Assembly: GCA_964520615.1 (NCBI GenBank)
Contig: CAZFNL010000120.1
Coordinates: forward strand, 1-62,105
Direction of reading: 5' to 3'
Origin: an uncultured Gammaproteobacteria bacterium
Lineage (GTDB): Bacteria; Patescibacteriota; Microgenomatia; 2-02-FULL-39-11
DNA: 62,105 nucleotides
The notes under the pieces are model-generated. The model was not told the origin of the DNA, did not search any database, and was given only the letters and a program-made list of their open reading frames with translations. Shown here piece after piece: positions 1 through 61,926 of this stretch (its first letter is position 1; each line of letters starts with the position of its first letter). Made by a program: the position numbers and the translations under genes.

Positions 1-690
1 AACTACAATATACAAAAGGAAAACCATCTTGGCATAAGCGTCTTTCCCTATGCCATCCTTGAGTCAACAGCGCTACAACCATTTCTTGATAGCATGATTC
101 CAGAAAAGGTCATTGGTGAATCGGATGAAGACAAAAGAGAAATAGTAGTTTATCAATTTGATAATCTACCTAAAGTGGCCTCCCTCCCCGGACCCAAATT
201 TGTCTTTGTCCATATCATCTCCCCCCACGGTCCGTATGTTTTTGACAAAAACTGCGGCGTGACATCCTATACCCAAAACTGGTACCGGCCGGAAGAGCAG
301 AATTATACAGCTCAAATCAACTGTATTAATAAAAAACTGGAAACGGCAATCGATTCTATCCTGAAGACTTCGTCCAAACCGCCTGTCATACTCCTTCAAG
401 CTGATGAGGGCGCCAAGTTCATCGCCGGCATGCTCAAACCTGAGGAAAGCTGGCAAAACGCTACCACTACCCAACTGAAGATGAAATTTCCCATTCTCTC
501 TGCTTACTATCTGCCTGGAGAACCAAAAGACAAGCTATACCAAACTATAACTCCTGTAAACTCATTTAGGATAATATTCAACTTATATTTTGACGCCAAA
601 ATGCCGCTTTTACCTGACAAAAATTATATTTATCTGGATAACAAACATCTCTACGATTTCCGCGACGTCACTAAAGAAATACATGGCTGA
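1..690 (+). CDS. Sulfatase/alkaline-phosphatase-superfamily-like protein, C-terminal part (5' truncated by window)
   Basis: Frame open from position 1; FVFVHIISPHGPY and VILLQADEG resemble sulfatase/LTA-synthase-like motifs. Confidence 0.5.
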   Translation, partial: NYNIQKENHLGISVFPYAILESTALQPFLDSMIPEKVIGESDEDKREIVVYQFDNLPKVASLPGPKFVFVHIISPHGPYVFDKNCGVTSYTQNWYRPEEQNYTAQINCINKKLETAIDSILKTSSKPPVILLQADEGAKFIAGMLKPEESWQNATTTQLKMKFPILSAYYLPGEPKDKLYQTITPVNSFRIIFNLYFDAKMPLLPDKNYIYLDNKHLYDFRDVTKEIHG

Positions 691-723
691 CAGGTATATT
701 TTCCAAAGAAGTATTTAGAAGAT

Positions 724-1038
724 TTAATTATGGTACCTTGTTGCAAATCTTTGGATTTCGTCCAATACCGGCAGCATACCCATGCCACGTTTACTCAGGT
801 GATAAGTAACTGACAGCTTGTCATGAATCTCCGCTTTGCGACTTATGAAATCTGCCCTCTCAAGCCTTTTTAACCTGTTAGTCAGGGTTACCGGATTAAG
901 ATTATTTAGCGCCCTTTGCAGCTGGCAAAATCTCAGGTTCCCCTTTCTCAACTCCATGATTATTGACAATGTCCAGAAATCTCCTATAACTTTGAGTAAC
1001 TTATTGCATTGTTTCTGGTTTTTCTCCTCCATGACCAT
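724..1038 (-). CDS. HxlR-family winged-helix transcriptional regulator
   Basis: C...LKVIGDFWTLSII, RFCQLQRAL, LTNRLKRLE, YHLSKRG typical of HxlR/DUF24; divergent from FMN reductase. Confidence 0.9.
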   Translation of the reverse strand: MVMEEKNQKQCNKLLKVIGDFWTLSIIMELRKGNLRFCQLQRALNNLNPVTLTNRLKRLERADFISRKAEIHDKLSVTYHLSKRGMGMLPVLDEIQRFATRYHN

Positions 1039-1060
1039 AATTTTATCCTCTTTTCCTCTC

Positions 1061-1114
1061 TTGACTATTTATTATTTGTACTATAATATATATAGTACTA
1101 TATTTATTATAGTT
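1061..1114 (+). promoter_or_regulatory. Sigma70-like promoter (TTGACT-17-TAATAT) overlapped by two tandem ACTATA-N5-TATAGT palindromes; putative HxlR-family operator
   Basis: TTGACT 1061-1066, TAATAT 1084-1089; TACTATA-atata-TATAGTA 1079-1097; ACTATA-tttat-TATAGT 1097-1113. Confidence 0.6.
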
Positions 1115-1152
1115 ATTATACAATAATATTTACTAAAATTAAAGGAGGCAAT

Positions 1153-1764
1153 ATGGCAAATTCAGATAAATTAAAAATACTGGTAATCCTAGGCAGTACC
1201 CGCAAAAAAAGATTCGGCGATAAAGCCGCAAAGTTTATTTACTCAGAGGCGGTAAAAAGGGATGATATGGATGTAGAACTTGTCGACCTGCGCGACTATC
1301 CCCTACCCTTTTTTGATGAACCTATATCCCCTTCAAGAATCACTGACGGAAAATATGCCAATCCGACTGTCCAAAAGTGGGCGGATAAAGTCAGTGTAGC
1401 AGACGGGTTTGTCATAGTCACCTCCGAGTATAACCATGGTTATCCAGCGGTGCTGAAAAATGCACTTGACTATGTATATTATCCGTGGAATAAAAAGGCT
1501 GTAGGCTTTGTAGCATACGGTAGCGTAGGAGGAGCAAGATCTGTAGAGCAACTGCGTGAAGTGGCAGTCGAACTACAGATGGCACCAATTAGAACCGGAA
1601 TACACATTCCATTTCAGGTAATGATGGAAATATTTAACAAAAAAGAGGGTGACAAAACAGATTATTTTTCGGCTTTCCGTCAGCAAGCAGGAGATTTTCT
1701 TTCACAACTTGCCTGGTGGACAAAGGCTCTTAAAGCGGCACGACAGACAGATATCATAAAATAA
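1153..1764 (+). CDS. NADPH-dependent FMN reductase (flavodoxin-like)
   Basis: LGSTR, DLRDYPLPFFDE, VTSEYNHGYPAVLKNALD, GGARSVEQLR; AAGGAGG RBS. Confidence 0.92.
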   Translation: MANSDKLKILVILGSTRKKRFGDKAAKFIYSEAVKRDDMDVELVDLRDYPLPFFDEPISPSRITDGKYANPTVQKWADKVSVADGFVIVTSEYNHGYPAVLKNALDYVYYPWNKKAVGFVAYGSVGGARSVEQLREVAVELQMAPIRTGIHIPFQVMMEIFNKKEGDKTDYFSAFRQQAGDFLSQLAWWTKALKAARQTDIIK

Positions 1765-1965
1765 AAGCGAGATGTCCCATCTGTCCATTCCAAAATCGTA
1801 ACGGTTCCATAACTTCAACATATTCTTAAGCTAATACCCCTAAAAATTGTTATAATCAATCCGGGTGAAATTTAGATGGAAGACTTTGGCATACTCTACA
1901 ATTGATGATTTCATAAGAAACATCCAATAATTTTTTTAGCCTCCGATTACTGCTATAATTTGTTT

Positions 1966-4462: not shown

Positions 4463-5566
4463 ATGAGCCAATCATTAAATTATCAGAGTAAACATTTCCA
4501 ATTCGGCTCTTTTGAATCGCACCCTACTTGTCTATTTCTACGTTCTATGTTGGACAGTATTAAAGAACCGTTTATTATAGGCATTGCTGGGGACAGCGGA
4601 AGCGGCAAGACTGTTTTTAGCGATGGAATCAGGAGGCTACTAGGTGAAAGCGTAGTCAAAACGATTGAAATGGACGGTTATCACAAGGAAAATAGGGCCG
4701 AACGCTTAAAAACTGGCCATTTGCCCTTAGATCCATCTATAAACAAACTTGATCTATTACATCAGCACCTGACAGACTTGAAAAAGGGAAAAGCAGTAGA
4801 GATTCCTGTGTATAATCATGCCACAGGTGATTTTGATAATCCAAGACCGTTTGCTCCTGCTCCAATTATTATAATTGAAGGGCTTCATGCTCTTTATCCT
4901 GAATTTCTACCTCTTCTGGATCTGAGTATCTATGTTGATCCGTCTAGGGAAGTAAAATGGAAATGGAAATACAGACGGGATATGGAAAAAAGAGGCCATG
5001 CTGCAGAAAAACTGATAGAAGAAATGCTCAAACGTGAAGCAGCTTATAAAAGATGGGTAGATTTCCAAAAGACAAGCGCCAATATCGTCATTAAAGTAAA
5101 TCTTACCCAAATGGCAAACTATGCCCGATATGAAATGGTCTATGCCATGCCGGAGATGTCCTACAAAGTAGAATTAATTATCCAACCCTCACAAAAACCA
5201 TTACCCAGCCTTATGCTTCCTCTTAATATGGGAGCAATACTTGATAACAACCAACCTCCTTTTCTTCTAGCAGCTGTTCCCAGTCTATATTGGGGAAGAA
5301 AAGTTATGGATGTTATCATTGATGGCTTACTTCCTGAACAGACAATAGCCAGTCTGGAAAATTTTATTGTCAGCTGCACAGGAATCCCGATAAGTGAGGC
5401 AATGAAGAGTGAAGCAAAGGATCTGAAATACGACAGCAGCAATGTCTCAGCTACCAGATTTGCCCAGCTTCTGATTGCCTGGCGGTTTTTGGAACAGGTC
5501 AACTGGAAATATAATGAACTTAGGGAGGGATATACCCAACGTAGTTCAGTTTGCAACGCAAAATGA
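4463..5566 (+). CDS. prk: Phosphoribulokinase (PRK/uridine kinase family, archaeal-PRK-like); alternative start at 4547
   Basis: IIGIAGDSGSGKT P-loop, DGYH, YNHATGDFD, IIEGLH, RRDMEKRG; adjacent to RuBisCO. Confidence 0.8.
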   Translation: MSQSLNYQSKHFQFGSFESHPTCLFLRSMLDSIKEPFIIGIAGDSGSGKTVFSDGIRRLLGESVVKTIEMDGYHKENRAERLKTGHLPLDPSINKLDLLHQHLTDLKKGKAVEIPVYNHATGDFDNPRPFAPAPIIIIEGLHALYPEFLPLLDLSIYVDPSREVKWKWKYRRDMEKRGHAAEKLIEEMLKREAAYKRWVDFQKTSANIVIKVNLTQMANYARYEMVYAMPEMSYKVELIIQPSQKPLPSLMLPLNMGAILDNNQPPFLLAAVPSLYWGRKVMDVIIDGLLPEQTIASLENFIVSCTGIPISEAMKSEAKDLKYDSSNVSATRFAQLLIAWRFLEQVNWKYNELREGYTQRSSVCNAK

Positions 5567-5631: not shown

Positions 5632-5694
5632 TTCCTTATCTGCTGGAGGTTTCTGGACCAGGTCAACTGGAAATATAATAATTTAAGTCTATAA
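5632..5694 (+). pseudogene. Recoded duplicate of the prk C-terminus (FLICWRFLDQVNWKYNNLSL*)
   Basis: Aligns to 5468-5530; 21-bp identity 5495-5515 vs 5659-5679. Confidence 0.85.
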
Positions 5695-11463: not shown

Positions 11464-11640
11464 AAAACAGATTATCTATTTTCTTTATCCTTAGAATTTA
11501 TTTCAAAATGTTATTTTAAGTCTATATTAGAGCTTTCTTTCAGGCTTAATTTGCAGGTTTTGGAACCAGTTCTAGACTTTACAGAGAAAAAAATCGTTTC
11601 TATAATGTAATCGTTGTTTAATAATAACAAGTAATCTTTG

Positions 11641-13065
11641 ATGAACTCAGACGTAATAGACAAAAATCAGGACGCCTCGCTTTTTGATTTCAATCTAGCA
11701 GACCACCTATTTCCCTCAAGAAGACTAATTGACTACAGTAGATATGTTTCCTCTCAGACAATAGCAAAAATACAGAAAGAAGCCGAAAGTCTGAAATACA
11801 AGACTATTATCAGATTTAATTCCACTCCTTTTGGTGGAGGTGTAGCTGAGCTTATACCTTATTTTGCTGCACTTATGAATGACCTAGGCATAGAGACCCA
11901 CTGGATGACTATGTCTTCTCCTTATGGGAATCAAAAAGGCTATAATCCTCCTCCGGAATTTTTTGGTATTACTACAGGTCTTCATTACTCACTACAAGAC
12001 TCCGGTAAAATGTGGCTCGTGTATGAAAAAAGGGACAGTACGATACACCCCAGGCTAGTTACCGAACATGACAAAGAATTGTATCTTAATATAAATTCAA
12101 CATTCGGAAAAATGCTCCGGGAATTCCAAATAAATACTCAAAAAAGCTGCATGTTTATCGCTGATGACCCGCAATGCGCAGCTGTAATTGAATCGGCAAG
12201 ACAAGATAAACAGAAATGGTTTTGGCGCTTCCATCCATATGGTGATCCTGCTTCAACCTCATGGAAATTTATTGAGCCTTATATATTGAAACATGATGCA
12301 TTGGTTTGCACTATACCCCAATATCTCCCTTCTGATTTCAAAAATAAGATAAAATATGAAACTAACTATCCTTTTGTTGACCCTTTCCATAAAAAACTAC
12401 AACCATTATCAAAAGATGAAGCGGATAAAATACTTTCTGAATTCGGCGTAGATCCCCAAAAGCCCATACTTGTTCAGGTTTCACGCTTTGATCCTGACAA
12501 AAATCCTTTGGGAGTACTTGAGGTTTTCAGGATACTTCGCCGAAAGTATGTCGGATTACAACTTATCTACACAGGACCGATAACCAACGATAACCCTGTT
12601 TCTTCTATGATACTAAAACAGATACAGTTAAAAGCGGATCAGATGGGATTTTCCGAAAATAAGGACTACTTCCTCCTACATACCCAAACGGCTCACCCCA
12701 GACCGTTTCACTACCATGAGTTGGCAGCAGTTTGGCAGGCAACAAATACATATATTATCCAACTATCCACGCTGGAAGGTTTTGGCATGATGGTTGCTGA
12801 AGCTTCATGGTGCGGCAAACCCGTGGTAGCCTCAAACATTGGCGGTATTATTCCACAAATACAGCATGGAAAAACTGGCTTTCTAGTATCACCCAGAAAT
12901 TATGAAGAAGCAGCATTAAATGTCGCCAAACTTATTGACGATCATCAAATGGAAAGAAATATGGGTATTGCTGCGCATAATTTTATCAAAGATAATTTCC
13001 TTATCACTTCCAACATTTTTAGGTGGTTGAAACTGATGAACTATTATAATCTTAATCAGGATTAA
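11641..13065 (+). CDS. GT4 glycosyltransferase, trehalose synthase (TreT)-like
   Basis: NSTPFGGGVAELI, QVSRFDPDKNPLGV, EGFGMMVAEASWCGKPVVASNIGGI. Confidence 0.75.
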   Translation: MNSDVIDKNQDASLFDFNLADHLFPSRRLIDYSRYVSSQTIAKIQKEAESLKYKTIIRFNSTPFGGGVAELIPYFAALMNDLGIETHWMTMSSPYGNQKGYNPPPEFFGITTGLHYSLQDSGKMWLVYEKRDSTIHPRLVTEHDKELYLNINSTFGKMLREFQINTQKSCMFIADDPQCAAVIESARQDKQKWFWRFHPYGDPASTSWKFIEPYILKHDALVCTIPQYLPSDFKNKIKYETNYPFVDPFHKKLQPLSKDEADKILSEFGVDPQKPILVQVSRFDPDKNPLGVLEVFRILRRKYVGLQLIYTGPITNDNPVSSMILKQIQLKADQMGFSENKDYFLLHTQTAHPRPFHYHELAAVWQATNTYIIQLSTLEGFGMMVAEASWCGKPVVASNIGGIIPQIQHGKTGFLVSPRNYEEAALNVAKLIDDHQMERNMGIAAHNFIKDNFLITSNIFRWLKLMNYYNLNQD

Positions 13066-13653: not shown

Positions 13654-13724
13654 TTTCTACTAAAATATCCGCATTAAATTGAAGGTAAAAGAAGGTTTTG
13701 TGGTGGCAATCTTTTACAGATTAA

Positions 13725-14195
13725 ATGACTACTTCCGACATAAAAAAAGAGGAAAACGTAATCATATCGGCGCAAAAGGAAACGCAAACGAAAAATATCA
13801 GCGGATCTCCCGGCCAACCTGACACAAAACCATTGGTTAATTCACCGGCTGTGGCTGATACTCCAAACTGCCCATTTTGCCATCTCCCTCGTCAGCCAAA
13901 CTATTTCTTTTGCCCAAACTGCGGCAGTAAACTGAAGCAGATACCACTGTCTGTATCAATAGGAAAACAAATTAGCATATACCTTATAAGTATTTTCCTG
14001 CCGCCGCTTGGGTATATATGGGGTTACAGATACCTGCGGCAGGAAAGCGCAACTGCCAAAAAAATAGGACTTCTCGCAATTGTCCTGACAACACTGTCAA
14101 TTGTTTTATCCCTTTGGGCTACAAAAGGACTAATTGATACAATCAATCAGACTCTCAATAAACAAATGGCGCCATACCAGAATCTCGGCTACTAA
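13725..14195 (+). CDS. Zinc-ribbon membrane protein
   Basis: CPFC..CPNCG plus two TM segments. Confidence 0.75.
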   Translation: MTTSDIKKEENVIISAQKETQTKNISGSPGQPDTKPLVNSPAVADTPNCPFCHLPRQPNYFFCPNCGSKLKQIPLSVSIGKQISIYLISIFLPPLGYIWGYRYLRQESATAKKIGLLAIVLTTLSIVLSLWATKGLIDTINQTLNKQMAPYQNLGY

Positions 14196-14260
14196 ATTCA
14201 TTTTAAAGATATATTCCGCTTTCACCCATTATCTTTATACAGAAGATTTATAATGATAGA

Positions 14261-15007
14261 TCAGATTTCTATTTTGGAAAAGAGATAGCTTCCCAACACT
14301 AGAAGAGCAAATGTAATAACTGAAAGAATAAAAAGATCAACAGTAAATCCGAAATGAGTTACTCCGGTCAGTGAATCTCTCAATCCGTCAACCCCGTATG
14401 AAAGCGGATCAAGCATCACAATTGCTGATAAGACCGCCGGCAGTCCTTCAAGCGGAAAAAGCGCTCCTGAGAGGAAAAACAGAGGCATAATAAGAAAATT
14501 CATTATAAGTTGAAACCCTTGCATATCCTCAAGCTTGGAAGCAATGGCGGTTCCCAGAGCGGTAAAAAGCACTGATATAAAAAACATGAAAATGAACGCC
14601 GTTAAAAGTGCTGCGAGTCCCGGTACTCTGAAACCCGCAAAAAGTGAAATAACAAAGATTATTACTCCCTGAAAAATAGCAACGGTTGCTCCTCCCAATG
14701 TCCTTCCCACCATTATCTCCAAACGTGATACGGGCGCGACAAGTGTTTCTTTTAGAAATCCGAATTGCCTGTCCCATATGATTTCTATTCCGGAAAAAAT
14801 TGAGGTAAACAAAATTCCCATAGCGATAATTCCGGGAACCAGAAATTGTATATAACTCCCCTGCCCGGCCCGTTTGAAAACCGGTCCCAATCCAAACCCC
14901 AAGGCTACCAGAAAGAGTATCGGCTGTCCGAGTGATCCGACTATCCTGGAATGCGACCTGAAATATCTTTTAATTTGCCTCAACCAAAGTATGTATATTG
15001 TGCTCAT
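14261..15007 (-). CDS. ABC-2 type exporter permease (DrrB-like)
   Basis: Six TM segments, DRQFGFLKETLVAPVSR; start MSTI at 15007. Confidence 0.9.
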   Translation of the reverse strand: MSTIYILWLRQIKRYFRSHSRIVGSLGQPILFLVALGFGLGPVFKRAGQGSYIQFLVPGIIAMGILFTSIFSGIEIIWDRQFGFLKETLVAPVSRLEIMVGRTLGGATVAIFQGVIIFVISLFAGFRVPGLAALLTAFIFMFFISVLFTALGTAIASKLEDMQGFQLIMNFLIMPLFFLSGALFPLEGLPAVLSAIVMLDPLSYGVDGLRDSLTGVTHFGFTVDLFILSVITFALLVLGSYLFSKIEI

Positions 15008-15011
15008 ATTT

Positions 15012-15821
15012 TTACCTCCCCCTTCTCCACATGGCACGGTGTTGGCGCATACGGTCAGTACCGGTTGCTTCTTCATCTCTTATTCCATGCCCGGTCAGGG
15101 ATAAAAATGCATCCTCAAGAGTCTCTTTTTTTGTTTTTTTCTTCAGCTCATCAGGCGTCCCCTGAGCCACAATCTTTCCGTGATCCATAATAGCAACTCT
15201 TTTGGCTACCTTTTCCGCCTCTTCGATATAATGTGTGGTAAAAAAGACGGTTATTTCCTCTTTTTTATTCAGATTCTGAACATATTCCCACATATGATTT
15301 CTCGTCTGCGGGTCAAGTCCTTGTGTCGGTTCATCCAGAAAAAAAATCTTGGGGTGATGAAGAAGTCCCCTGGCAATCTCAAGTCTTCTTTTCATCCCTC
15401 CTGAAAATGTTTTGACAAGATTATCTCGTCTTTCCCAGAGCTCTACAAACTTCATCAGCTCTTCAATTCTGGAATTCATCAGATTTCCGGGAACTTTATA
15501 AAGTACTCCGTGAAATTCCAGATTTTCCTTTGCCGTCAGGTCATCATCAAGACTAGGATCCTGAAACACTATGCCAAAAGATCTTCTTGCTTCATTTTTA
15601 TCAATCATCGGATTATAACCGTTGAGACTGATTTTTCCTTCTGTAGGAAAAAGAAGAGTAGTAAGCATCTTTATGGTAGTTGTTTTTCCTGCACCATTCG
15701 GACCTAGAAAGGCAAAAATATCCCCTCTTTCAACATTAAAAGAAATACCGTCAACGGCTGTAAAACCGCTAAATCTTTTGGTCAAATTTTTTACTTCAAT
15801 AATATGGTTATTATTACCCAT
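15012..15821 (-). CDS. ABC exporter ATP-binding protein (DrrA-like)
   Basis: GPNGAGKT, FSGGMKRR, LDEPT. Confidence 0.93.
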   Translation of the reverse strand: MGNNNHIIEVKNLTKRFSGFTAVDGISFNVERGDIFAFLGPNGAGKTTTIKMLTTLLFPTEGKISLNGYNPMIDKNEARRSFGIVFQDPSLDDDLTAKENLEFHGVLYKVPGNLMNSRIEELMKFVELWERRDNLVKTFSGGMKRRLEIARGLLHHPKIFFLDEPTQGLDPQTRNHMWEYVQNLNKKEEITVFFTTHYIEEAEKVAKRVAIMDHGKIVAQGTPDELKKKTKKETLEDAFLSLTGHGIRDEEATGTDRMRQHRAMWRRGR

Positions 15822-15852
15822 AAATTCTGTTTCCTAGCCCTAGAAATACAAA

Positions 15853-15871
15853 CTCTAACCTAAAGTTAGAG
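15853..15871. promoter_or_regulatory. Palindrome upstream of ABC exporter, MerR-type operator candidate
   Basis: CTCTAAC-ctaaa-GTTAGAG. Confidence 0.35.
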
Positions 15872-16053
15872 GTAAATAAAAAATCCTCGCGTTCTATGTT
15901 ATAGAATAATCTTATTATACTCCGATAAAGGACTTCTCCCTATTCTAATTCTGATTGTTTAATAAAATATAGTTTAACTCTCAGGTATAAGGCAGATATC
16001 ATACCTTATACCCTATGAGTTTTATGAGTCAAATTATAGACATCTCTCACAAA

Positions 16054-16509
16054 TCACGTTCCTGAAGGCCGAGGGCCGGCACCCGCGCCTGCTCCGAAAC
16101 GGAAATTGGCCGGATTCAACTGTACATCCTGAGCGGTAACGCTTCCGTCTGAATTAGACGTACCAAATGCCATTACCTCATCTCCACTTTTTATGTCGGA
16201 TGTTTTGGCGGATTGTGACTGACTTATGTTTGTGCTGTTTGAGAGAATAACGATTTTGCTGCTTCCATCATTCATCTGTACGGTCATACTACCATTCCCG
16301 ACACTTGTTACTTTACCTCTAACAGCAAGATTATTTGAGTTTGCTCCGTTTCCGCCGAATCTTTGTCTTAATTGTCCGCCGTTTGCACCTCCCGTTCCTC
16401 CAAGACCGAAAGCTGTACTTCTTCTTGATCCTGCATACATGGTTCCTCCATAAAACGAGGCTGCTGCAACAACTACAACCAAAATTGCTATGATTATTTT
16501 GTTATTCAT
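16054..16509 (-). CDS. Exported DUF5666-like protein
   Basis: N-term TM, Gly-rich linker, VRGKVTSV...DIKSGDEVMAFG. Confidence 0.7.
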   Translation of the reverse strand: MNNKIIIAILVVVVAAASFYGGTMYAGSRRSTAFGLGGTGGANGGQLRQRFGGNGANSNNLAVRGKVTSVGNGSMTVQMNDGSSKIVILSNSTNISQSQSAKTSDIKSGDEVMAFGTSNSDGSVTAQDVQLNPANFRFGAGAGAGPRPSGT

Positions 16510-17576
16510 TTATTTTCACCCCCTTTCAGATATTTATCAAAAAAATCAAGCGAATGCTGCATTGCTATGGAAAAAGATGGGCCGGAAATATTGTGATCGG
16601 CTCCGGAATAAGTATAAAACTCTACTGTTTTGCCCAATTTCTTCAAATCATCATACAGACTTCGGGAAAACTCAGGAGGAACATCTTCATCGGCCAACCC
16701 TTGGTCAAGCTGCAGAGGACCTGAAATATCGGATAAGTAATATCTTGGGTCTATACTGTGCCAAAATGAAGGGTTTTGTTGAAATGTGCCGTATTTAACC
16801 GCCAAATTTTGTCTTATTGATGTCACATGGGCTGCTATTTCTTTTTCAGATGGAGCCCAAGATGTCATCCTATGCCAATGGTTCATCAATTGATCATAAG
16901 TCCCCACTACGCCGCCCCAAATCACTCCTACTTTTATATCTCTGGATACCACCATCGCCCGAAGCGCAATATTTCCTCCCATTGAGTGTCCCCACATGCC
17001 AATTCTGTTAGAGTCAACTTCACTATACTTTTTGACCGAAGATAATGCGTTTAATACATCTACTGTATACGCAGGTGAATAGTAGGCTCCTTCTGGTTTT
17101 CCTTGGGAACTACCGTTACCCCTATAATCAGGCTTGAAGACTACATAACCGTTTCTGGCAAACTCATCCACATAAGCGACGTATCTTTCTGTGGTTCTAT
17201 ACTGCTCGGGAGGAATATAGCCATGGTTAAAAATGATTGCCGGCCAACCTGTTTTGGGCATTTGTCCGTCCGGTACAGTTAATAAAGCGTATATTTTCAA
17301 TCCGTCGGACATGTAAGAAGCAATATACTGTTTGTAGTTGCTGCCCTGAGCCAAAGTTTCTTCAATCTTTATGTTGCTACCCGGATAACTTCTCTGCCTC
17401 ATTGCAGCAATTGTTAAGGGATTCAGGTTAACTTGAGCCGTAGTTGTTGGTGTCGGAACCGGTTTTCCGGTCAAAATACTCTGTGTTTTAACCATTCGAT
17501 GGCTGAACAAACCGTAACCTACCAGTAAAACAAGTATTAATCCCGTAAAAATTATCAATTTCGTATTCAGTTTCAT
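16506..17576 (-). CDS. Alpha/beta hydrolase, peptidase S9-like
   Basis: HGY, GHSMGG nucleophile elbow, D and ADHN catalytic motifs. Confidence 0.85.
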   Translation of the reverse strand: MKLNTKLIIFTGLILVLLVGYGLFSHRMVKTQSILTGKPVPTPTTTAQVNLNPLTIAAMRQRSYPGSNIKIEETLAQGSNYKQYIASYMSDGLKIYALLTVPDGQMPKTGWPAIIFNHGYIPPEQYRTTERYVAYVDEFARNGYVVFKPDYRGNGSSQGKPEGAYYSPAYTVDVLNALSSVKKYSEVDSNRIGMWGHSMGGNIALRAMVVSRDIKVGVIWGGVVGTYDQLMNHWHRMTSWAPSEKEIAAHVTSIRQNLAVKYGTFQQNPSFWHSIDPRYYLSDISGPLQLDQGLADEDVPPEFSRSLYDDLKKLGKTVEFYTYSGADHNISGPSFSIAMQHSLDFFDKYLKGGENK

Positions 17577-17618
17577 ATATTTCAGGTAGAATTGAACCTT
17601 TGAACTCAGATAAAAAGA

Positions 17619-17669
17619 TTACTCATGTCTCAAAGCTTCAATCGGGGATAAATCAGCGGCTTTCCCGGC
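17619..17669 (-). pseudogene. Recoded duplicate of the ABC permease C-terminus (AGKAADLSPIEALRHE*)
   Basis: Aligns to 17695-17745 (ARKAADLSPIEALRYE*), offset 76. Confidence 0.88.
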
Positions 17670-17694
17670 ACGTATTCCCGTAATATTTCTCCTG

Positions 17695-18918
17695 TTATTC
17701 ATATCGTAACGCTTCTATCGGAGATAAATCTGCCGCCTTACGTGCTGGATAAAGTCCGAATACTATTCCTATACCCGCCGATACACCTATTGCCAAAATT
17801 ATAGCCGATAGGGATAGGGTAAACGGCAGGCTTATAAAATGAGAAATTACAAATGACAACCCCGCACCCAAAAACATCCCTATTACGCCTCCGACAAAGG
17901 TTAGAATAATAGACTCAGCAAGAAATTGGGAAATAACCGTCCTCTTCTTGGCTCCTAGGGCTTTTCTCAAACCTATTTCCCTTGTCCTTTCTGTTACTGT
18001 CACAAGCATGATATTCATAATTCCGATTCCCCCGACAAGAAGAGATATGGCGGCAATTCCGGAAAGAAGCGCGCTGAAAGTACCTGTCACCTGGGATGCA
18101 GCTCCCAATATGTCAGCCTGGGAAAATATGCTGAAATCTGCCTGTGCGGGATCTTTTATCTTATGTCTGGTCAGAAGAAAATAGCCTACTTGGTTTTCCG
18201 CCTGTGTCATAACGTCCGTACTCTTGGCGGAAACGGAAATATTACTCACATAATCCACTCCGTATAACTGATGTTGTGCGGTGGTAAGAGGAACATAAAC
18301 AATATCATCCTGATTGGCAAATCCCGATCCGCCCTTGGAGACTGTTACGCCAACCACTCTGAAAGCCTGCTTGTTTATTCTTATGGACTGTCCGACCGGA
18401 TCTGCTCCGTCACCGAAAAGATCACTTACTACCTGCGGACCCAAAACGGCTACTTTCTCCTCACTGTCTACATTATTCTGGCTTATAAATGCGCCTGAAG
18501 ACATTGTAATGTTGCGTACGGCAGCATATGCCGGAGTAACCCCGGCTATCTGTGTATTCGTATTGTTTCTGCCCGCTGTTACCTGTCCTCTCCTTGTCAG
18601 TTCAGCCGACACGTTACTTACCGTTGTCACATCAGGTGATGATAAAATAGCTTTTGCGTCATCATAAGTAAGTGAAGTGTCCCCTCCGGCTGCCCCCCTG
18701 ACCCCGCCGGTTGTTGAAGCACCCGGTATAACAGTCAGAAGATTGGATCCCAAAGATTCAATCTGCGACTGCACCGCTTTTTGTCCGGCCTGGCCCAAGG
18801 AAATGAGCGCAATAACGGCCCCGATACCAATTACAATACCGAGAGTTGCCAGGGCTGTACGCATTTTATTCAAAGTCAGAGCATTTATACTTTCGGCGAG
18901 AAGTTCTCCAAAATCCAT
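17695..18918 (-). CDS. MacB/FtsX-like ABC permease
   Basis: GIVIGIGAV, GGIGIMNIMLVTVTERTREIGLRKALGA, PIEALRYE. Confidence 0.93.
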   Translation of the reverse strand: MDFGELLAESINALTLNKMRTALATLGIVIGIGAVIALISLGQAGQKAVQSQIESLGSNLLTVIPGASTTGGVRGAAGGDTSLTYDDAKAILSSPDVTTVSNVSAELTRRGQVTAGRNNTNTQIAGVTPAYAAVRNITMSSGAFISQNNVDSEEKVAVLGPQVVSDLFGDGADPVGQSIRINKQAFRVVGVTVSKGGSGFANQDDIVYVPLTTAQHQLYGVDYVSNISVSAKSTDVMTQAENQVGYFLLTRHKIKDPAQADFSIFSQADILGAASQVTGTFSALLSGIAAISLLVGGIGIMNIMLVTVTERTREIGLRKALGAKKRTVISQFLAESIILTFVGGVIGMFLGAGLSFVISHFISLPFTLSLSAIILAIGVSAGIGIVFGLYPARKAADLSPIEALRYE

Positions 18919-18922
18919 ATTT

Positions 18923-19621
18923 TTAAATCTTAATTTTTAAATGTTTTCCGTTTTTCTCATCCTTAATAATTTTACCGTCGCGCACGGTAATAATCCTTTT
19001 TGCAAACTTTGCAATTGATGGTTCATGCGTAATCATAATCACTGTATGTCCTTTCCTGTTCAAATCGGAAAAAATTTTCATGATCTCTTCACTTTGACTG
19101 GTTGCCAGATTTCCCGTGGGTTCATCAGCCAGAAGTATGGCAGGATCCATGGCAAGTGCTCGGGCTATAGCGACTCTCTGCTGCTGACCTCCTGAAAGCT
19201 GGTTTGAATTATGGTGTAATCTGTCTCCAAGACCGACCATTGTCAGCAACTCAGTGGCTCTTTTTTCCCTGTTCTCTTTAGGATAAGCAGCGTAAGTGAG
19301 TGGTAACATCACGTTTTTCAGTGCGGAAGTTCTGGGAAGAAGATTAAAAGCCTGAAAGACAAAACCTATTTTTTTGTTCCTGATCTCAGCCAATTCATCA
19401 TCCGTAAGTCCTTCTATATCCTGGCCGTCAAGTATATATTTACCAGAGGTGGGTGTATCAAGGGCACCAAGCATATGCATAAGCGTGGACTTTCCGCTTC
19501 CTGAAGGACCCATGATGGCAACATACTCTCCTTTGTTTACCTCAAAATTGATATCTGACAGGGCTACAGTCTGTACACCATCCATTTTGTAGATTTTGGT
19601 AAGATGCGTGACTTTGATCAT
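18923..19621 (-). CDS. ABC ATP-binding protein (MacB/LolD-like)
   Basis: GPSGSGKS, LSGGQQQR, LADEPTG. Confidence 0.93.
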   Translation of the reverse strand: MIKVTHLTKIYKMDGVQTVALSDINFEVNKGEYVAIMGPSGSGKSTLMHMLGALDTPTSGKYILDGQDIEGLTDDELAEIRNKKIGFVFQAFNLLPRTSALKNVMLPLTYAAYPKENREKRATELLTMVGLGDRLHHNSNQLSGGQQQRVAIARALAMDPAILLADEPTGNLATSQSEEIMKIFSDLNRKGHTVIMITHEPSIAKFAKRIITVRDGKIIKDEKNGKHLKIKI

Positions 19622-19694
19622 AAATTATTCCTGACATAATACTTTCTTTAATTCCCCAATTTTTTGTCTGTTTATTTTCACTTATGTTGATTTA

Positions 19695-20984
19695 TTAACC
19701 TCCACGGAATAACACTCTGCCGCCTCCTCCGCCTCCAAACCCTCTGCTGAAAGGTGAACTTCCTCCGCCAGTTGTCGTGCTTGAACCGCTTATGGTACCT
19801 GTTATTATCTGATTACCATCAGACAACCCGGATACTATTTCCGTTTGAGTATCTGATGAAATACCTGTCTGAACCGGCATGCTTACCGGATGTCCGTTCC
19901 GCAGTATCCTGACGTATGACTGGTTACCGCTTGTCTGAATTGCGGATGAAGGAACCATTAGTACATTATTCTTTGTGGCCGTTATTATATTGGCTGTTGC
20001 AGACATATTTGGTAATATATCTGCGGAAGTTGGATCTAATGTAATCGTAAGAGGATAATTAGTTACTCCACTACTCACTACACCCGTCCTGTCTACTCCG
20101 GAAACTGTTCCGGTAAAAGTCATATTTGGGAAAGCATCCAAAGTGATAGTGGCTTTTTCTCCTTCTTTTATGGTACCTACATCAATTTCCGCCACACTGA
20201 ACTGACCAGCTATGGTATTTCCGGTTGTAATTGTGGCAATTTTCTGGGACACTGCAGCACTGCTCTGACTGTTTGTCTGGGAGGCCAATGTCATACCGGG
20301 CACCAGAGTAATGTCGCCCACTATACCTGCTGCCGGAGCCGTAATAGTAGCGGAAGCAGCCTGATAATTGAGCCAGGAATTGGACAAAGCTGCCTGGTCC
20401 TGGGCGATAACATCCTGCTGGTTCTTATAATCTGCCTCAGCCTTAAGCCAGTTATCGTAAACTTCATAAAATTGCGGTAAAGTCCTGTTGGCTGTATTTG
20501 GAGAATTGTCAGAATTCTGGTATGTGGAGTTTTGTGCAGTGTCCATATATGTCTTCCAGTCTCCCATCATTGTTGACTGAAGACTGTATAGTTTGGCATT
20601 GTCCGACGCCAAACTGTTTTTTGCCGATAAATAGCTTGCGTAAGCCTGTTGCTGACGCTGTAATCCAACGGAGTCTGGCGTGACGGTCAAGAGTGTCTGT
20701 CCCTGACTAACCTTGTCACCGTTTTTCACCAGAATATCTTTTATAATTCCTGAAGCCTGGGAAGTAACAGTCATCTTACCGGATGTGGCTATCTGCCCGG
20801 AAACGGAAATTGAGGACACTATCGTACCTTTCGTAACTTTTGTTGTCTGATACTGAACAGTCTGTTGAGCTCCCTTTACTTTTTGCCAAGCAAAGAATAT
20901 AACCGCCAAAAGGAGAATAATAACAACTCCTGCTTTTAACCGGTTTTTAAAAAATTCTGAAAGAAACGTTTTTATCGTCTTCAT
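19695..20984 (-). CDS. Efflux periplasmic adaptor (MacA/HlyD-like)
   Basis: N-term TM, VKNGDKVSQGQTL, ITAPAAG, ILPNMSATA, VQTGISSD. Confidence 0.88.
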   Translation of the reverse strand: MKTIKTFLSEFFKNRLKAGVVIILLLAVIFFAWQKVKGAQQTVQYQTTKVTKGTIVSSISVSGQIATSGKMTVTSQASGIIKDILVKNGDKVSQGQTLLTVTPDSVGLQRQQQAYASYLSAKNSLASDNAKLYSLQSTMMGDWKTYMDTAQNSTYQNSDNSPNTANRTLPQFYEVYDNWLKAEADYKNQQDVIAQDQAALSNSWLNYQAASATITAPAAGIVGDITLVPGMTLASQTNSQSSAAVSQKIATITTGNTIAGQFSVAEIDVGTIKEGEKATITLDAFPNMTFTGTVSGVDRTGVVSSGVTNYPLTITLDPTSADILPNMSATANIITATKNNVLMVPSSAIQTSGNQSYVRILRNGHPVSMPVQTGISSDTQTEIVSGLSDGNQIITGTISGSSTTTGGGSSPFSRGFGGGGGGRVLFRGG

Positions 20985-21000
20985 AAAAAGGATATTAAAA

Positions 21001-54406: not shown

Positions 54407-54835
54407 TTAGTCGCAGCAGCTGCAATTACCCTCGCCGCAACATTCTCCTTTCTTATCTTTTGTAAAAGCTATACATTCTATCTCAACTAAAGCATCCTTT
54501 GGCAATTTAGCTACAGCAATAGTTGCCCGCGCCGGATACGGCTTGGAAAAAAAGGTGGCATAAACTTCATTCATAGAGGCAAAATCATCCATGCTTTTCA
54601 GATAAACAGTGGTCTTTAACACGTTTTCCATACCAGAACCGGCTGCAGAAAGAATATTCTTTATATTCTCTAAAGCAAGTTTCGTCTGTTCTTTTATCCC
54701 TTTATCGCTTAATATGTTTGTTTTTGGATCCGCTCCTATGTTACCAGCGCAAAAAACCAGATTACCCAGCTTGACAGCTTGTGAATATGGTCCTATGGCC
54801 GATGGAGCCTTTTTGGTATCAACTTCAATTTTCAT
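54407..54835 (-). CDS. ridA: RidA/YjgF enamine-imine deaminase
   Basis: IGPYSQA, YPARAT, LVEIE; Cys-rich tail CCGEGNCSCCD. Confidence 0.92.
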   Translation of the reverse strand: MKIEVDTKKAPSAIGPYSQAVKLGNLVFCAGNIGADPKTNILSDKGIKEQTKLALENIKNILSAAGSGMENVLKTTVYLKSMDDFASMNEVYATFFSKPYPARATIAVAKLPKDALVEIECIAFTKDKKGECCGEGNCSCCD

Positions 54836-54871
54836 AATAGTACCTCCTTACAATAAAGTTTATATTCACTA

Positions 54872-57799: not shown

Positions 57800-58288
57800 T
57801 TATTTATATAATGCGGTTCTTCCGGTCCGCACAAACTCAATAATGCCGAATTTCTTCATATTTTCATAAAAGGCATCAATTTTCTCCTCTTCACCGGTAA
57901 TCTCTAGCACCATATATTCTGGATGAATATTTACTACATGAGCTCTAAAATGATCGGCAATGTTGGATACTTCAATTCTAGCTCCTGGCTTTCTTATGGA
58001 AACCTTTAGAAGCGCAAGTTCTCTGGCAACAATTTCTCCTGGTGCTGGATCGCTTACTTTTAAAACTTCAATAATCCGGTAAAGTTGTTTGCTCATTTTC
58101 TCAACAATGTCTTTTTCTCCCCGCACCAATATCGTAAATCGCGAAATCAGGGGATTTTCTGTATGTGATACCGTCAGACTCTCGATATTAAACCGCCTTT
58201 TGCGGATAAGGCCTGCAATCCGGAAAAGGACTCCCGGTCGGTTTTGTACAGACACGATTAAAGTTGACAAATTATTCTTAGTCTCCAT
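57800..58288 (-). CDS. ilvN: Acetolactate synthase small subunit
   Basis: NRPGVL, FNIESL, VRTGRTAL. Confidence 0.93.
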   Translation of the reverse strand: METKNNLSTLIVSVQNRPGVLFRIAGLIRKRRFNIESLTVSHTENPLISRFTILVRGEKDIVEKMSKQLYRIIEVLKVSDPAPGEIVARELALLKVSIRKPGARIEVSNIADHFRAHVVNIHPEYMVLEITGEEEKIDAFYENMKKFGIIEFVRTGRTALYK

Positions 58289-58296
58289 AAATCTTA

Positions 58297-58317
58297 TTTA
58301 CGCTTTACGCTAAACGC
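58297..58317. repeat. Heptamer tandem array (TTTACGC)2-TAAACGC
   Basis: Seen directly. Confidence 0.75.
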
Positions 58318-58322
58318 TAATT

Positions 58323-58358
58323 TTACTCCAGTATAATTTCATCCACGGCCGCACCAGC
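58323..58358 (-). pseudogene. Recoded duplicate of the ilvB C-terminus (AGAAVDEIILE*)
   Basis: Aligns to 58399-58434, offset 76; 17-bp identity block. Confidence 0.9.
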
Positions 58359-58398
58359 ACCACTTTTATAACATATCCTACTAAAACTATGATTATTG

Positions 58399-60105
58399 CT
58401 ATTCTAATATTATCTCGTCCACGGCCGCACCAGCCGGCATCATTGGGAATACATTGGCCTCTGTCTCCACAACAAATTCAATAACAAACGGTCCTTTATG
58501 CGCACGTGCTTTTTTTATTGCAGGTAATATATCCTTTCTGTTTTCTACTTTCACAGCCGGTATCCGGAACCCCTCGCAGAGTTTGATAAAATCGGGATTC
58601 CTCAAAAATACCTCCGAATATTTATGATTGAAAAAAAGATGCTGCCATTGCCGTACCATACCCAAAAAATTATTATTCAGAATTGCTACTTTAATATCTA
58701 TATTTTCCTCTTCAATGGTTGCTAGCTGATTCATGGTCATCTGGAAACTTCCATCCCCAACAATTGCCCAGACTTCGGCCCCAGATCTGCCCAATTTTGC
58801 GCCCATAGCAGCCGGAATGGAAAAACCCATAGTACCTAAACCTCCGGAAGTAAGAAATCTGTCAAGTTTATGAAAATGGTAATATCTGGCGGCTATCATC
58901 TGATGTTGACCCACATCGGCTACAACAACTGCCTCACCCCTCGTCTCCTGATTCAGCTCATTAACCACCTCACCCATTTTGATTTTTCCTTTTTTGGGAT
59001 GGACTTCAACTTGAATAACCTTTTTATCTTCAATCCGGTCATATTTTTTAAATTCCGCAAACCATTCTTTATGCTTTACACGATTGACTAGAGGAATAAG
59101 TTTACCAAGAACATTTTTCACGTCGCCGACAATAGGCACATCTGCTTTTACATTTTTCCCCAGCTCGGCAGGATCAATATCCACATGAACTACTTTCGCG
59201 CCTTTGGCATAAGAAGATAAATTTCCAGTCACTCTGTCATCAAAACGCATACCCAAAGCAATCAGGCAATCAGTTTTATTAGTACACATATTCGGACTAA
59301 GATTCCCGTGCATCCCCAACATTCCTACATAACTTGGATGGTCAACAGTGATACTACTGATTCCATGAAGGGTGGTAGCTACAGGAATATCAGCCTTTCG
59401 TGCAAGCTCATCCAGCTCTTTTTCAGCATGGGAAATGAGGATTCCGTGACCAGCCAAAATATAAGGCTTTTTGCTTTCATTTATAATTTCTGCCGCTTTT
59501 TTAATTTGTATAATATTTCCCTCAACAGTCGGCTTGTATCCGGGAAGATCTAGACTTTTGGGGTAAACAAATTTGCACTCTCTATATTGCGCATCTTTGG
59601 CAATATCAATCATGACTGGACCGGGTCTCCCTGAATTGGCAATATAAAAAGCTTCTCTTATTACATCCGCCACTTCCTCCGGTTTTAGGATAAGATAATT
59701 ATGTTTGGTAATCATTCCCGTCACTCCTACCACATCAGTCTCCTGAAAAGCATCGTTGCCAATGAGATTTGAAACCACCTGGCCGCTAATGCAAACAATC
59801 GGGACTGAATCCATCATGGCATCGGCAATTCCGGTTATCAGATTTGTGGCACCAGGTCCTGAGGTAACGAGGCAAACTCCCGGTTTACCGGTAACTCTAG
59901 CATAGCCTTCAGCAGCGTGAGCCGCACCCTGTTCGTGACGTACCATCACATGATGAAGCTCCGGATATTCCAAAAGCGCATCATAGGTTGGCATGATAGC
60001 ACCCCCTATATAACCAAAAATTGTATCGACTCCCTCACGAAGCAACATTTCACAAAGAATTTCTCCACCGGTTGCGTTCTGTCCTTCTTTTAATCTAGTT
60101 TTCAT
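58399..60105 (-). CDS. ilvB: Acetolactate synthase large subunit
   Basis: RHEQGA, TSGPGATN, FQETD, GDGSFQM..NN, PM. Confidence 0.96.
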   Translation of the reverse strand: MKTRLKEGQNATGGEILCEMLLREGVDTIFGYIGGAIMPTYDALLEYPELHHVMVRHEQGAAHAAEGYARVTGKPGVCLVTSGPGATNLITGIADAMMDSVPIVCISGQVVSNLIGNDAFQETDVVGVTGMITKHNYLILKPEEVADVIREAFYIANSGRPGPVMIDIAKDAQYRECKFVYPKSLDLPGYKPTVEGNIIQIKKAAEIINESKKPYILAGHGILISHAEKELDELARKADIPVATTLHGISSITVDHPSYVGMLGMHGNLSPNMCTNKTDCLIALGMRFDDRVTGNLSSYAKGAKVVHVDIDPAELGKNVKADVPIVGDVKNVLGKLIPLVNRVKHKEWFAEFKKYDRIEDKKVIQVEVHPKKGKIKMGEVVNELNQETRGEAVVVADVGQHQMIAARYYHFHKLDRFLTSGGLGTMGFSIPAAMGAKLGRSGAEVWAIVGDGSFQMTMNQLATIEEENIDIKVAILNNNFLGMVRQWQHLFFNHKYSEVFLRNPDFIKLCEGFRIPAVKVENRKDILPAIKKARAHKGPFVIEFVVETEANVFPMMPAGAAVDEIILE

Positions 60106-60109
60106 ATTA

Positions 60110-60137
60110 AAAGCGTTTAGCGGTAAGCGTGAAACGT
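60110..60137. repeat. Degenerate heptamer array, inverted relative to 58297-58317
   Basis: AAAGCGT TTAGCGG TAAGCGT GAAACGT. Confidence 0.65.
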
Positions 60138-60174
60138 GAAGTTTCTTTTTACGCTTTTGGCCTGGCGCCTTATG

Positions 60175-61893
60175 CTAACTTGTAACTGCGCCGTATGAAG
60201 CGCTTGATACCAGTTTTGCGTATTTTGCCAGAACTCCCCGTTTATATTTATCTGCCGGAGCTTTCCAATTCTTCCTTCTTTTCTCAATCTCATCTTTACT
60301 TATATCCAAATCTACGATCCTTTTTTTCAGGTTGATAGTTATCATATCTCCTTCTTTCACTAAAGCAATTGTCCCTCCGACTTTTGCCTCGGGTGATACA
60401 TGTCCTATCATAATTCCGTGAGTACCGCCTGAGAAACGTCCGTCTGTAATAAGGGCAACATCTTTCCCCAATCCCCGACCCATTAGAGCTGAAGAAGGAG
60501 AAAGCATCTCCCGCATGCCTGGTCCGCCTTTTGGACCCTCATATCTTATCACTATTACGTCTCCTTTTTTTATCTTCCCGGCGAGAATTGCATCAAGAGC
60601 ATCCTCTTCCCTCTCAAAAACTCTGGCAGGACCCCGATGCATCTCCATCTCCTTGCCGGAAAGTTTCATCACTGCACCCTCTTTTGCCATATTGCCATAC
60701 ATGACAACAATATGATGGTCAGACGGCGCCAAAGGTTTATCAAAACTATATACAATCTTCTGGTTTGAGGGTCGCCTCCGGGCTGACCTGATATTTTCCT
60801 CTACCGTTTTTCCTGTTACTGTCATACATTCACCATGAATAAGCCCTGCTTCATAAAGCATTTTCAAAACCATTTGTACTCCGCCTATGGTATGCAAATT
60901 CTCCATAACATAATCACCAAAAGGTTTGAAATTACCCAAAAGTGGTACTTTCTTTCCGATTCTATCAAAATCAGAAAGAGTCAAATCAATATCAGCCTCA
61001 TGGGCCAAAGCTAAAAGATGAATATAAGCATTGGTAGATCCTCCAAGAGCCAACACAACCATAATCGCATTTTCAAAAGCCTTTTTTGTCATGATATCCC
61101 TTGTTCTTATGCCTTTTTTCATCAGGTTAAAAAGAGCTTTGACTGAATTTTTGCAGTCTGCTTTTTTCTCCGCTGATACCCGGTTTTTGCGGTCTACGGC
61201 CAAATTGGTAGCAGAACCTGGCAAACTCATTCCCAGTGCCTCAATGGCACTTGACATGGTATTGGCGGTAAACATCCCCCCGCAGGCACCGGCTCCCGGA
61301 CATGAATGGCACTCAATCTGCCGGAATTCGGCATCGTTCATCTTACCCGCAGCGTGAGCTCCGATTGCTTCAAAAGTGCTGACTATTGTCAGGTCTTTTC
61401 CTTTATACCTTCCCGGCAAAATACTTCCTCCATAGAGAGTCAACCCTATGCTGTTGTTTCTGGCCAGCGGCATAAGCGCTCCCGGTATAGTCTTGTCGCA
61501 GCCTGAAAGGGTAATAATACCGTCAGCCATATATGATTCATGCATTGTCTCGATGCTGTCGGCGATAAGCTCGCGGGAAACAAGGGAATACTTCATGCCT
61601 TCCATGCCCATTGATTCTCCATCACTTACTACAGGAGTTCCGAATATGAACGCTTTCCCTCCGGCTTTTTCTATCTCATCTTTTATAATCTCTCCCAACT
61701 CCTGGACTTGAGCATTGCAGGGAGTAGCATTGGTGTATGGACAAGCTACAGTCACGATGGGTTTTTCAAAATCTCGGTCATTGAAATTGACTGCCCGCAG
61801 CATGGCACGTGCCGCGGCTCTTTTTGCCCAATCCTTGCCGCCGGGGGTTCCGGTAAGAAACCTGCTTCGATTTTTTAATAAATTTTTACTCAT
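60175..61893 (-). CDS. ilvD: Dihydroxy-acid dehydratase
   Basis: [41 protein letters not shown]. Confidence 0.96.
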
Positions 61894-61898
61894 AAACG

Positions 61899-61926
61899 AA
61901 AAAGCCTCTCTTTCTTGAGAGGCTTT
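61899..61926 (-). terminator. ilv attenuator terminator
   Basis: AAAGCCTCTC-6-GAGAGGCTTT; U-tract on minus strand. Confidence 0.85.

Follow-up and report, generated by a model that had tools for sequence, protein, structure and literature searches.

What is to be made of a gene whose last codons occur twice in succession, with nearly the same meaning and a different spelling? The question is raised by a gene for a MacB-like ABC permease in the 62,105-nt contig CAZFNL010000120.1 of an uncultured patescibacterium; this whole stretch is called the window here. The gene (17695..18918, 407 aa; like all features of its cluster it lies on the minus strand) encodes MacB_PCD and FtsX domains (Pfam PF12704, 1e-45, and PF02687, 1.6e-21), and its product ends in ...GLYPARKAADLSPIEALRYE. 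The final 16 codons and the stop (H1, ARKAADLSPIEALRYE, 17695..17745) form the functional terminus. A 25-nt spacer (S, CAGGAGAAATATTACGGGAATACGT, 17670..17694) separates them from a second version of the same terminus (H2, AGKAADLSPIEALRHE*, 17619..17669), which is out of frame and untranslated and is referred to below as the shadow. A preliminary description of this DNA suggested that the shadow may mark the junction at which a peptidase gene had entered the operon. The reading preferred here, with a probability of roughly 0.6, is that the shadow is the former native C-terminal end of the permease, displaced by a 76-nt in-frame insert that carries a differently spelled tail.

The doubled permease terminus

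H1 and H2 have 14 of 16 residues and the stop in common, and 10 of the 14 common residues are spelled with different codons. The functional copy reads GCA CGT AAG GCG GCA GAT TTA TCT CCG ATA GAA GCG TTA CGA TAT GAA TAA and the shadow GCC GGG AAA GCC GCT GAT TTA TCC CCG ATT GAA GCT TTG AGA CAT GAG TAA. Nucleotide identity is 38/51, the longest identical run is 8 nt (GATTTATC) and the differences cover all base types. Counted according to Nei and Gojobori, 11 synonymous differences fall on 11.7 sites and two non-synonymous differences on 36.3 sites, in agreement with the near-saturation of synonymous sites claimed in the preliminary description. The offset between the copies is 76 nt, hence the shift of one base that puts the shadow in a different frame. 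The nearly exclusive synonymous divergence also bears out the view that until recently the shadow served as a functional gene end, in an allele unlike the present one.

A chance origin of the shadow is excluded. A genome-wide scan for copies of gene tails returned 14 matches downstream on the same strand and none in the opposite-strand control, and a motif scan gave a single control match in 1.37 Mb. The sequence itself was checked against Logan k=31 contigs of three runs (X1, X2 and X3), which represent three samples of one mine-drainage study. Positions 17000-18300 are spanned by a single contig in X1 and X2, and in X3 by overlapping contigs, one of them across the shadow. Over this interval the contigs of all three runs show no differences, no joints and no alternative form. 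Since they reproduce the sequence exactly, the doubled terminus, with its residue counts and its offset, is no product of assembly, and the presence of the shadow in the reads, named beforehand as decisive, is established.

The closest relative of the genome that holds the window (G000, a metagenome-assembled genome (MAG) of 1.67 Mb in 138 contigs) is a sister genome of the same genus (G001). The window is collinear with it across all 62 kb. At the end of the permease gene, the only difference is an indel of 76 nt, and BLAST collinearity breaks exactly at 17695. The extra segment comprises H1 and S (17670..17745), and its alignment to a gap in the sister genome suggests an in-frame insert. The spacer is unique within the genome, and the sister lacks a counterpart. 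There, a single permease tail is followed by about 48 nt and the start of an alpha/beta-hydrolase gene; here, tail, spacer and shadow are followed by 42 nt (17577..17618), which align in part with the 48-nt gap, and by the same hydrolase, whose start region is conserved (CTACCTGAAATATATGA vs GTACTTGAAATATATGA). Relative to the hydrolase start, the shadow is thus placed where the sister has its permease stop. An 8-nt repeat in the 42-nt gap (TTGAACCT/TTGAACTC, 17592-17607), to which attention had been drawn, is present; it is a trivial, imperfect two-copy repeat and carries no weight.

The shadow bears the genus-specific signature AADLSPIEALR. Its own residue changes, Arg to Gly and Tyr to His, occur in none of 20 orthologues, all of which end in RYE where the shadow has RHE. 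They amount to ∼0.055 per non-synonymous site, less than the synonymous distance between the two sister genomes, and this fits displacement after their split, followed by neutral decay. The spacer is less informative. It matches the downstream flank at 7/25 positions and the codons upstream of H1 weakly (12/23, with a 1-nt gap). From an ATG inside the real tail (tATGAATAA), its translation runs MNNRRNITGI..., which resembles hydrolase starts that overlap the permease stop in other genera and may hint at such a donor, although the resemblance is suggestive only. The GC content at third codon positions (GC3) is not decisive as a marker of foreign origin. The shadow has no evident function and, taken alone, is a small neutral scar.

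A genus-specific class of ∼75-nt units

The shadow is not alone. Among the 14 shadow C-termini found genome-wide, 13 have offsets of 73-80 nt. A composition-free scan for direct repeats (at least 25/30 identity, all spacings from 20 to 300 nt) gives a sharp peak at 70-77 nt, with about 33 loci, and almost none at other spacings in this range. About 30 units of 70-80 nt thus lie at gene edges in this genome, and the permease shadow is a typical member by geometry because its unit measures 76 nt, H1 is in frame, the spacer is unrelated and H2 stands in a context like that of the sister genome. The units are found at gene stops, at gene starts and at one tRNA 5′ end. Shadow N-termini precede a DnaB-like gene and the gene for the beta subunit of a 2-oxoacid oxidoreductase. 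At the tRNA (G000 C99 26330-26430), the first 23 nt of the gene are repeated 73 nt upstream, so the units are not confined to protein-coding ends.

The layout is always x-H1-S-H2-p, where H is a copy of a gene end or start. H ranges from 23 to 75 nt and S from 4 to 50 nt; only the sum of H and S is constant. The spacers have no common motif, and no spacer has a second copy in the genome; these two observations tell against a family of mobile elements. Where the repeats are identical, the spacer resembles neither of the flanks, and some members come near to full-length tandem units (79 nt at C107, 80 nt at HppA). The reads confirm two further members besides the permease. At HppA one contig runs across the unit, and at C18 the unitig of the spacer has single-copy depth while that of the repeat has double depth.

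The same peak is seen in 355 kb of the sister genome, with six loci at 71-76 nt, some common to both genomes and some private. Several of the common units are 93% identical and differ in copy number between the genomes; at C85 and C88, there are two copies in G000 and three in G001. Neither 400 kb of a genome from another genus of the same family (G010) nor 1.5 Mb of loci from other genomes has a ∼75-nt peak. Collectively, this indicates a process specific to the genus, which by its top protein matches is Microgenomates-like.

A second member in the window is the doubled ilvB tail, AGAAVDEIILE* (58323..58434, minus strand), again at an offset of 76 nt and consisting of a 17-nt identical block followed by synonymous differences. 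In the sister genome (L183 8250-8450), the same boundary between ilvB and ilvN is occupied by three perfect copies in an array with a period of 71 nt; this ilvB allele is very different, with 56% protein identity. At a ridA-like gene, window positions 54803-54863 are single-copy, and the sister genome (G001 C9 ∼44930) has a shadow N-terminus at a 76-nt offset, the first copy with ATA for ATG.

The paired ends fall into two kinds, one with identical copies and one in which synonymous sites are saturated and few residues differ. Similar copies carry the species-specific substitutions in both members of the pair, and thus undergo concerted evolution. Across 11 pairs the proportion of differing synonymous sites (pS) is 0.665 and that of non-synonymous sites (pN) 0.080, a pN/pS of 0.12. 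HppA is the clearest case, with 18 synonymous differences on 17 sites and two non-synonymous differences, 22 of 23 residues being identical; the HppA tails of other genera match its shadow (83-90% nucleotide identity) and not its functional tail.

Three further observations concern neighbouring or similar structures. An element of ∼140 nt (...CCCCGCACCAGAATGCCCCGGGTTGTCAACCCGTGGGATGAATGG...) lies beside two class members (G000 C53 ∼13848-13990, L258 49-190; and C90 downstream of 15426); in the metagenomes its k-mers are 20-40 times as deep as those of the flanks, which marks it as a high-copy repeat common to many genomes of the community. On the plus strand of the window, a PRK C-terminus has a shadow (5471-5515 and 5635-5679) with an offset of 164 nt, outside the 75-nt geometry, at a site that coincides with a break of collinearity with the sister genome (5520-5696). 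Finally, two permease relatives from other lineages, at 69-70% identity, have mini-shadows ahead of the next ATG (L106 5200-5275 and L173 600-705; TEALRYE* and IEALRYE*). Their offsets are 50 and 80 nt, the inserts after the real stop share CCTGAGCCTGTCGAA, and in L173 the hydrolase start is reduced to a stub of seven codons. These are a related theme, not necessarily the same process.

Polarity, origin and competing explanations

Which copy is native? The single copy in the sister genome can be compared with each of the two copies in G000, and four members (C53, C90, C11a and C107) allow this clearly. The sister's copy matches the shadow at 23/24 positions and the functional copy at 20/24 in C53, and at 49/51 and 36/51 in C90. 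For C11a and C107, the H copies themselves are indecisive (36/42 vs 34/42 and 59/78 vs 56/78), and the context decides: the 25 nt that follow the sister's stop match those after the shadow at 25/25 (C11a) and 19/25 (C107) positions, and those after the functional copy at 7/25 and 6/25. In all four, the single copy of the sister stands in the context of the shadow, which makes the functional terminus and the spacer an in-frame insert of ∼75 nt and the shadow native. By analogy with these four clearer members, the permease shadow would also be the native copy and H1 with S the newcomer.

The new ends probably did not arise from the old ones on the spot. Neutral drift of a dead copy gives mostly non-synonymous change, so ends that differ at synonymous sites must have evolved as working gene ends elsewhere. 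Upstream of the units at C53 and C90, the flanks agree with the sister genome at 97-98% identity, and the new tail differs by 17-30%; flanks so similar leave no time for so much synonymous change in the new ends. In the permease, the shadow has about two non-synonymous changes of its own and its synonymous sites are saturated relative to the new tail, which argues against a new tail derived by drift from a local copy. Sequence comparison thus suggests that the new permease tail most likely comes from a diverged orthologue, and the insert would be of foreign origin.

The locus lies in a divergent setting. The permease is 88% identical to its sister orthologue at the protein level, and yet the synonymous divergence (dS) between them is 2.2, against a background of 0.2-0.3 between the two genomes. 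The cluster consists, in order, of genes for a response regulator, a histidine kinase, a HlyD-type adaptor, an ABC ATPase and the permease, followed by the shadow, the hydrolase and a DUF5666 protein. It is conserved across the family and occurs in other Patescibacteria, with the top outside matches in Amesbacteria and Shapirobacteria MAGs. Along it, dS from the sister jumps from 0.23 in the histidine kinase to 2.0 in HlyD, exactly at the HlyD start codon, and remains at 1.6 in the ATPase and 2.2 in the permease; in the hydrolase it is 1.2. In a sliding window, a block saturated at synonymous sites (17250..20975; pS 0.6-0.85, background ∼0.2) extends from the HlyD start codon across the shadow and ∼350 nt further into the hydrolase gene. 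A step of synonymous divergence at the shadow, seen at the level of whole genes (0.70 vs 0.60), was therefore dropped. In four ranges of the window (1-1800, 11600-13000, 13700-21000 and 57800-61900), blocks with sharp edges diverge from the sister genome with dS from at least 1 to saturation; about one-quarter of the window is affected, which suggests frequent allele exchange with more distant relatives. In the genome and metagenome collections scanned, no permease other than that of the sister genome exceeds 72% protein identity.

Within this setting the rival accounts have to be weighed. The block may have arrived as a whole. A long allelic replacement would have brought HlyD, ATPase and permease from a diverged congener by homology-facilitated illegitimate recombination, anchored near the HlyD start. 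At its far end the incoming DNA would have run 25 nt beyond the donor stop and been joined illegitimately 51 nt before the recipient stop, leaving the recipient tail as the shadow. This account differs from the preferred one only in the length of the incoming DNA. The sharp jump of dS at the HlyD start codon speaks for it, as does C107, where the upstream gene is diverged too (76% to the sister genome) beside a shadow and downstream sequence that are native-like (91%). The course of the saturated tract is mixed evidence: the tract starts at the HlyD start but passes the shadow on its way to ∼17250, so the shadow is not its boundary. Against the account, only ∼75 nt are new at C53 and C90, given their nearly identical upstream genes, and an illegitimate join would not reproduce the 76-nt geometry of 30 other sites. 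A long replacement is accordingly held unlikely, though not negligible. A local tandem duplication of ∼76 nt over the stop codon, by slippage or flap ligation and followed by divergence and partial gene conversion, would account for the fixed period, the near full-length units at C107 and HppA, the perfect multi-copy arrays in the sister genome and the weak similarity of the permease spacer to the upstream codons. On neutral decay, however, ∼11 non-synonymous changes are expected for 10 synonymous ones at the permease, and two to three are found; the 18 to two ratio at HppA is at odds with decay as well. Spacers that match neither flank in members with identical repeats, and new tails that differ by 17-30% within flanks nearly identical to the sister's, do not fit either. 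Tandem duplication is thus quite improbable.

The version of the preliminary description, in which a hydrolase segment together with the last codons of a donor permease was inserted downstream of the resident permease, has to be judged from the neighbouring genes. The gene in question (16506..17576, 356 aa) encodes an alpha/beta-hydrolase with matches of the Peptidase_S9, S33 and S15 types. It does lie, as described, between the permease and the DUF5666 gene (16054..16509), the conserved final gene of the cluster. The contiguity of shadow and hydrolase is in favour of an arrival in one piece, as is a hydrolase dS far above the background. But permease, hydrolase and DUF5666 have the same order and orientation in the sister genome, where there is no shadow, and at least seven further loci (L086, L093, L096, L097, L098, L101 and L106; 52-70% identity), several of which belong to other genera of the family, also have the hydrolase beside the permease; in all others, DUF5666 directly follows the permease. 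This indicates that the peptidase is an old, variable member of the cluster and ancestral neighbour of the permease, and that it did not come with the shadow. The spacing from shadow to hydrolase and the start region also match the sister genome, and the shadow is the native copy in the four polarized members. The junction was thus rightly seen as a recombination scar; as a marker of the arrival of the peptidase, it probably points to the wrong element and in the wrong direction, and the insertion of a hydrolase segment is very improbable. It is hardly credible that the shadow is the stub of a second, tandem permease paralogue, almost wholly deleted. Tandem pairs of FtsX-type permeases exist in the family and at a locus of distant Patescibacteria (L040), but a second permease follows this one in none of more than 25 orthologous loci, tblastn of the own genome gives one weak FtsX match (30% identity), and the shadow DNA is single-copy. 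The genus-specific signature of the shadow and a 76-nt geometry common to unrelated genes are equally hard to reconcile with a stub. Lastly, the concatenation of two strain variants at a k-mer-sized overlap (76 = 77 − 1) would explain a fixed ∼76-nt period and copies that look like two alleles. The probability of such an assembly artefact is negligible, given that the k=31 contigs carry the junctions unbranched, that the depths at C18 are those of a real unit and that units recur in the sister genome with other copy numbers.

The displacement of a native end by a short insert, as preferred here, has its own difficulties. At the permease itself, polarity cannot be read directly, because the shadow sits inside a block that is saturated on both sides: the sister's tail matches the real copy at 42/51 positions and the shadow at 40/51, and the post-stop contexts match at 11/25 and 7/25. 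No spacer of the class was found in another context, as in a donor, either in 21 genomes (the family, which is the whole order) or in any contig of the three metagenome runs. The permease spacer, weakly similar to the codons upstream of H1, may instead have decayed from a copy of them, and this would favour a full-length tandem unit. The patch at C53 is polymorphic, which a simple model does not predict: in two of the three runs, two haplotypes (G000 C53 14076-14160, L258 277-361) differ by 16 substitutions and two indels within ∼85 nt that cover the end of the real tail, the spacer and the shadow, with identical flanks. The alternative haplotype has a real tail with two synonymous codons of the native type. 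In diverged pairs, H1 and H2 are 65-75% identical, a poor substrate for pairing guided by homology. A simple search for in-register replaced patches of ∼75 nt inside genes, window against sister genome, gave no clear signal or mode. Finally, no basis is known for fragments of one constant length of ∼75 nt.

A possible mechanism and its relation to known systems

How might a short insert displace a gene end? In the preferred reading, DNA was added just upstream of the old end of the permease and would have supplied ∼16 respelled codons, a stop of its own and 25 nt of unrelated sequence. Translation would now stop in the insert, and the old ending would remain untranslated 76 nt downstream, ahead of an unchanged hydrolase gene. 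The simplest process that gives the layout x-H1-S-H2-p with a constant sum of H and S is probably the integration of a short single-stranded fragment. A foreign fragment of ∼75 nt from relatives would pair through its conserved coding part at the homologous site, and its non-homologous end, intergenic in the donor, would stay unpaired. The whole fragment could then be ligated ahead of the displaced native strand, a single cut in the resident strand allowing both ends to join. Such products would be kept only at gene boundaries, where an extra partial copy is harmless; inside genes they would be lethal or invisible. Later, the copies would be homogenized by gene conversion and changes in copy number, or would stay apart if too different. 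At the joints, microhomology amounts to 12 nt at C53, 4 nt (CTAT) at C90 and at most 2 nt at the permease.

Natural competence has been shown in cultivated Patescibacteria (PMC10633639), and DprA and RecA, which are present in both sister genomes, make it plausible in this organism. Together with a FEN-type 5′ nuclease, these two proteins are found in nearly all members of the family, G000 and G001 included, and their near-universal presence means that no gene loss explains a process confined to one genus. It is tempting to propose a recombination or mutation pathway at the level of the genus, endowed with a ∼75-nt ruler, which stitches pieces of diverged orthologues into the homologous site, keeps the resident copy and leaves products that survive at the ends of protein and tRNA genes. 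This proposal is tentative and somewhat more doubtful than not. Such a ruler might be set by the stretch of imported DNA that a single-strand-binding complex covers.

The shadow alone says nothing about how the operon gained its peptidase. Its ∼30 siblings point to an insertion process of constrained size that operates in a single genus of ultrasmall bacteria, uncultured and probably competent, and swaps gene ends for foreign-looking but synonymous versions. If this is true, the scars are a natural record of transformation with short fragments in such bacteria, and would give a read-out of short-fragment DNA exchange, from sequence alone, in organisms not yet grown; they would, moreover, add a new origin for the small 'substitute-end' inserts of other groundwater bacteria. 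The class also demonstrates that a gene end and its dead copy can evolve in concert. Annotators and methods that detect recombination are warned that, in genomes of this kind, what looks like an alternative C-terminus or a 75-nt repeat at a gene boundary can be genuine. The constant length poses a concrete, testable puzzle.

Several known systems leave repeats or substitute gene ends. Two candidates were rejected on gene content and structure. Ectopic integration of CRISPR spacers (neo-CRISPR) would require Cas1 (PF01867), which is absent from G000 and G001 and present in two other members of the family and in seven control genomes; in addition, neither the repeat (23-75 nt) nor the spacer (4-50 nt) is of fixed length. 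A diversity-generating retroelement (VR/TR) would require a reverse transcriptase (PF00078), likewise absent from both genomes, and the mismatches are not confined to adenines. A closer parallel is the integration of prophage e14 or phage 21 in the 3′ end of icd in E. coli, where the incoming DNA brings a replacement 3′ end, most of whose differences are synonymous, and leaves the old end stranded downstream. In that case the two ends enclose an entire prophage with its integrase, and the crossover is marked by an identical core. At the permease, in contrast, the ends are 25 nt apart, there is no recombinase gene nearby and no identical core exceeds 8 nt, although the ilvB member does have its block of 17 nt. 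Stranded ends are also known from loci of polymorphic toxins and type VI secretion systems (T6SS), for instance in Vibrio cholerae, where successive 3′ replacements leave older 3′ remnants downstream (PMC5361080). Those remnants differ in protein, since new toxin domains are acquired, and come with immunity genes, whereas the units described here keep the peptide unchanged and bring no new function.

The topology is that of an insertion with long target duplication, in which a direct target duplication of tens of bases brackets the insert and no recombinase gene is involved (Furuta, Abe and Kobayashi 2010, PMC2853133). The H1-S-H2 layout and a sister genome that lacks exactly H1 and S correspond to it. 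The known cases have cargo of kilobases (restriction-modification genes) and near-identical repeats; in the present class the cargo is 4-50 nt and adds up with the repeat to a constant length, and in many pairs nearly all synonymous sites of the repeats differ. In homology-facilitated illegitimate recombination (de Vries and Wackernagel 2002; see PMC3240628), homology anchors one end of the incoming DNA, and the opposite end is attached illegitimately with little or no microhomology. The addition of foreign sequence beside a conserved gene is common to both. Such joins occur at variable distances and usually delete recipient DNA, whereas in the present class the start of the paired segment is always restored, the native copy is kept and ∼75 nt are gained.

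In SPDIR, ectopic single strands of 3 to ∼100 nt, including transformed ones, anneal at extended microhomology at the replication fork and are built into the nascent strand, giving small indels with no dedicated element, very rarely in wild-type cells (bioRxiv 10.1101/2023.11.22.568220). Its size range covers the 76 nt of the permease unit, and joint microhomology is found in both. The units are, however, tightly confined to 70-80 nt, each adds sequence without any loss and doubles the paired region, the incoming strand apparently derives from the orthologous site in another lineage, and a single small genome has ∼30 such events fixed despite its RecA and DprA. Thus the class is not fully matched to any described mechanism; by analogy, it appears closest to SPDIR and homology-facilitated illegitimate recombination, with the topology of an insertion with long target duplication.

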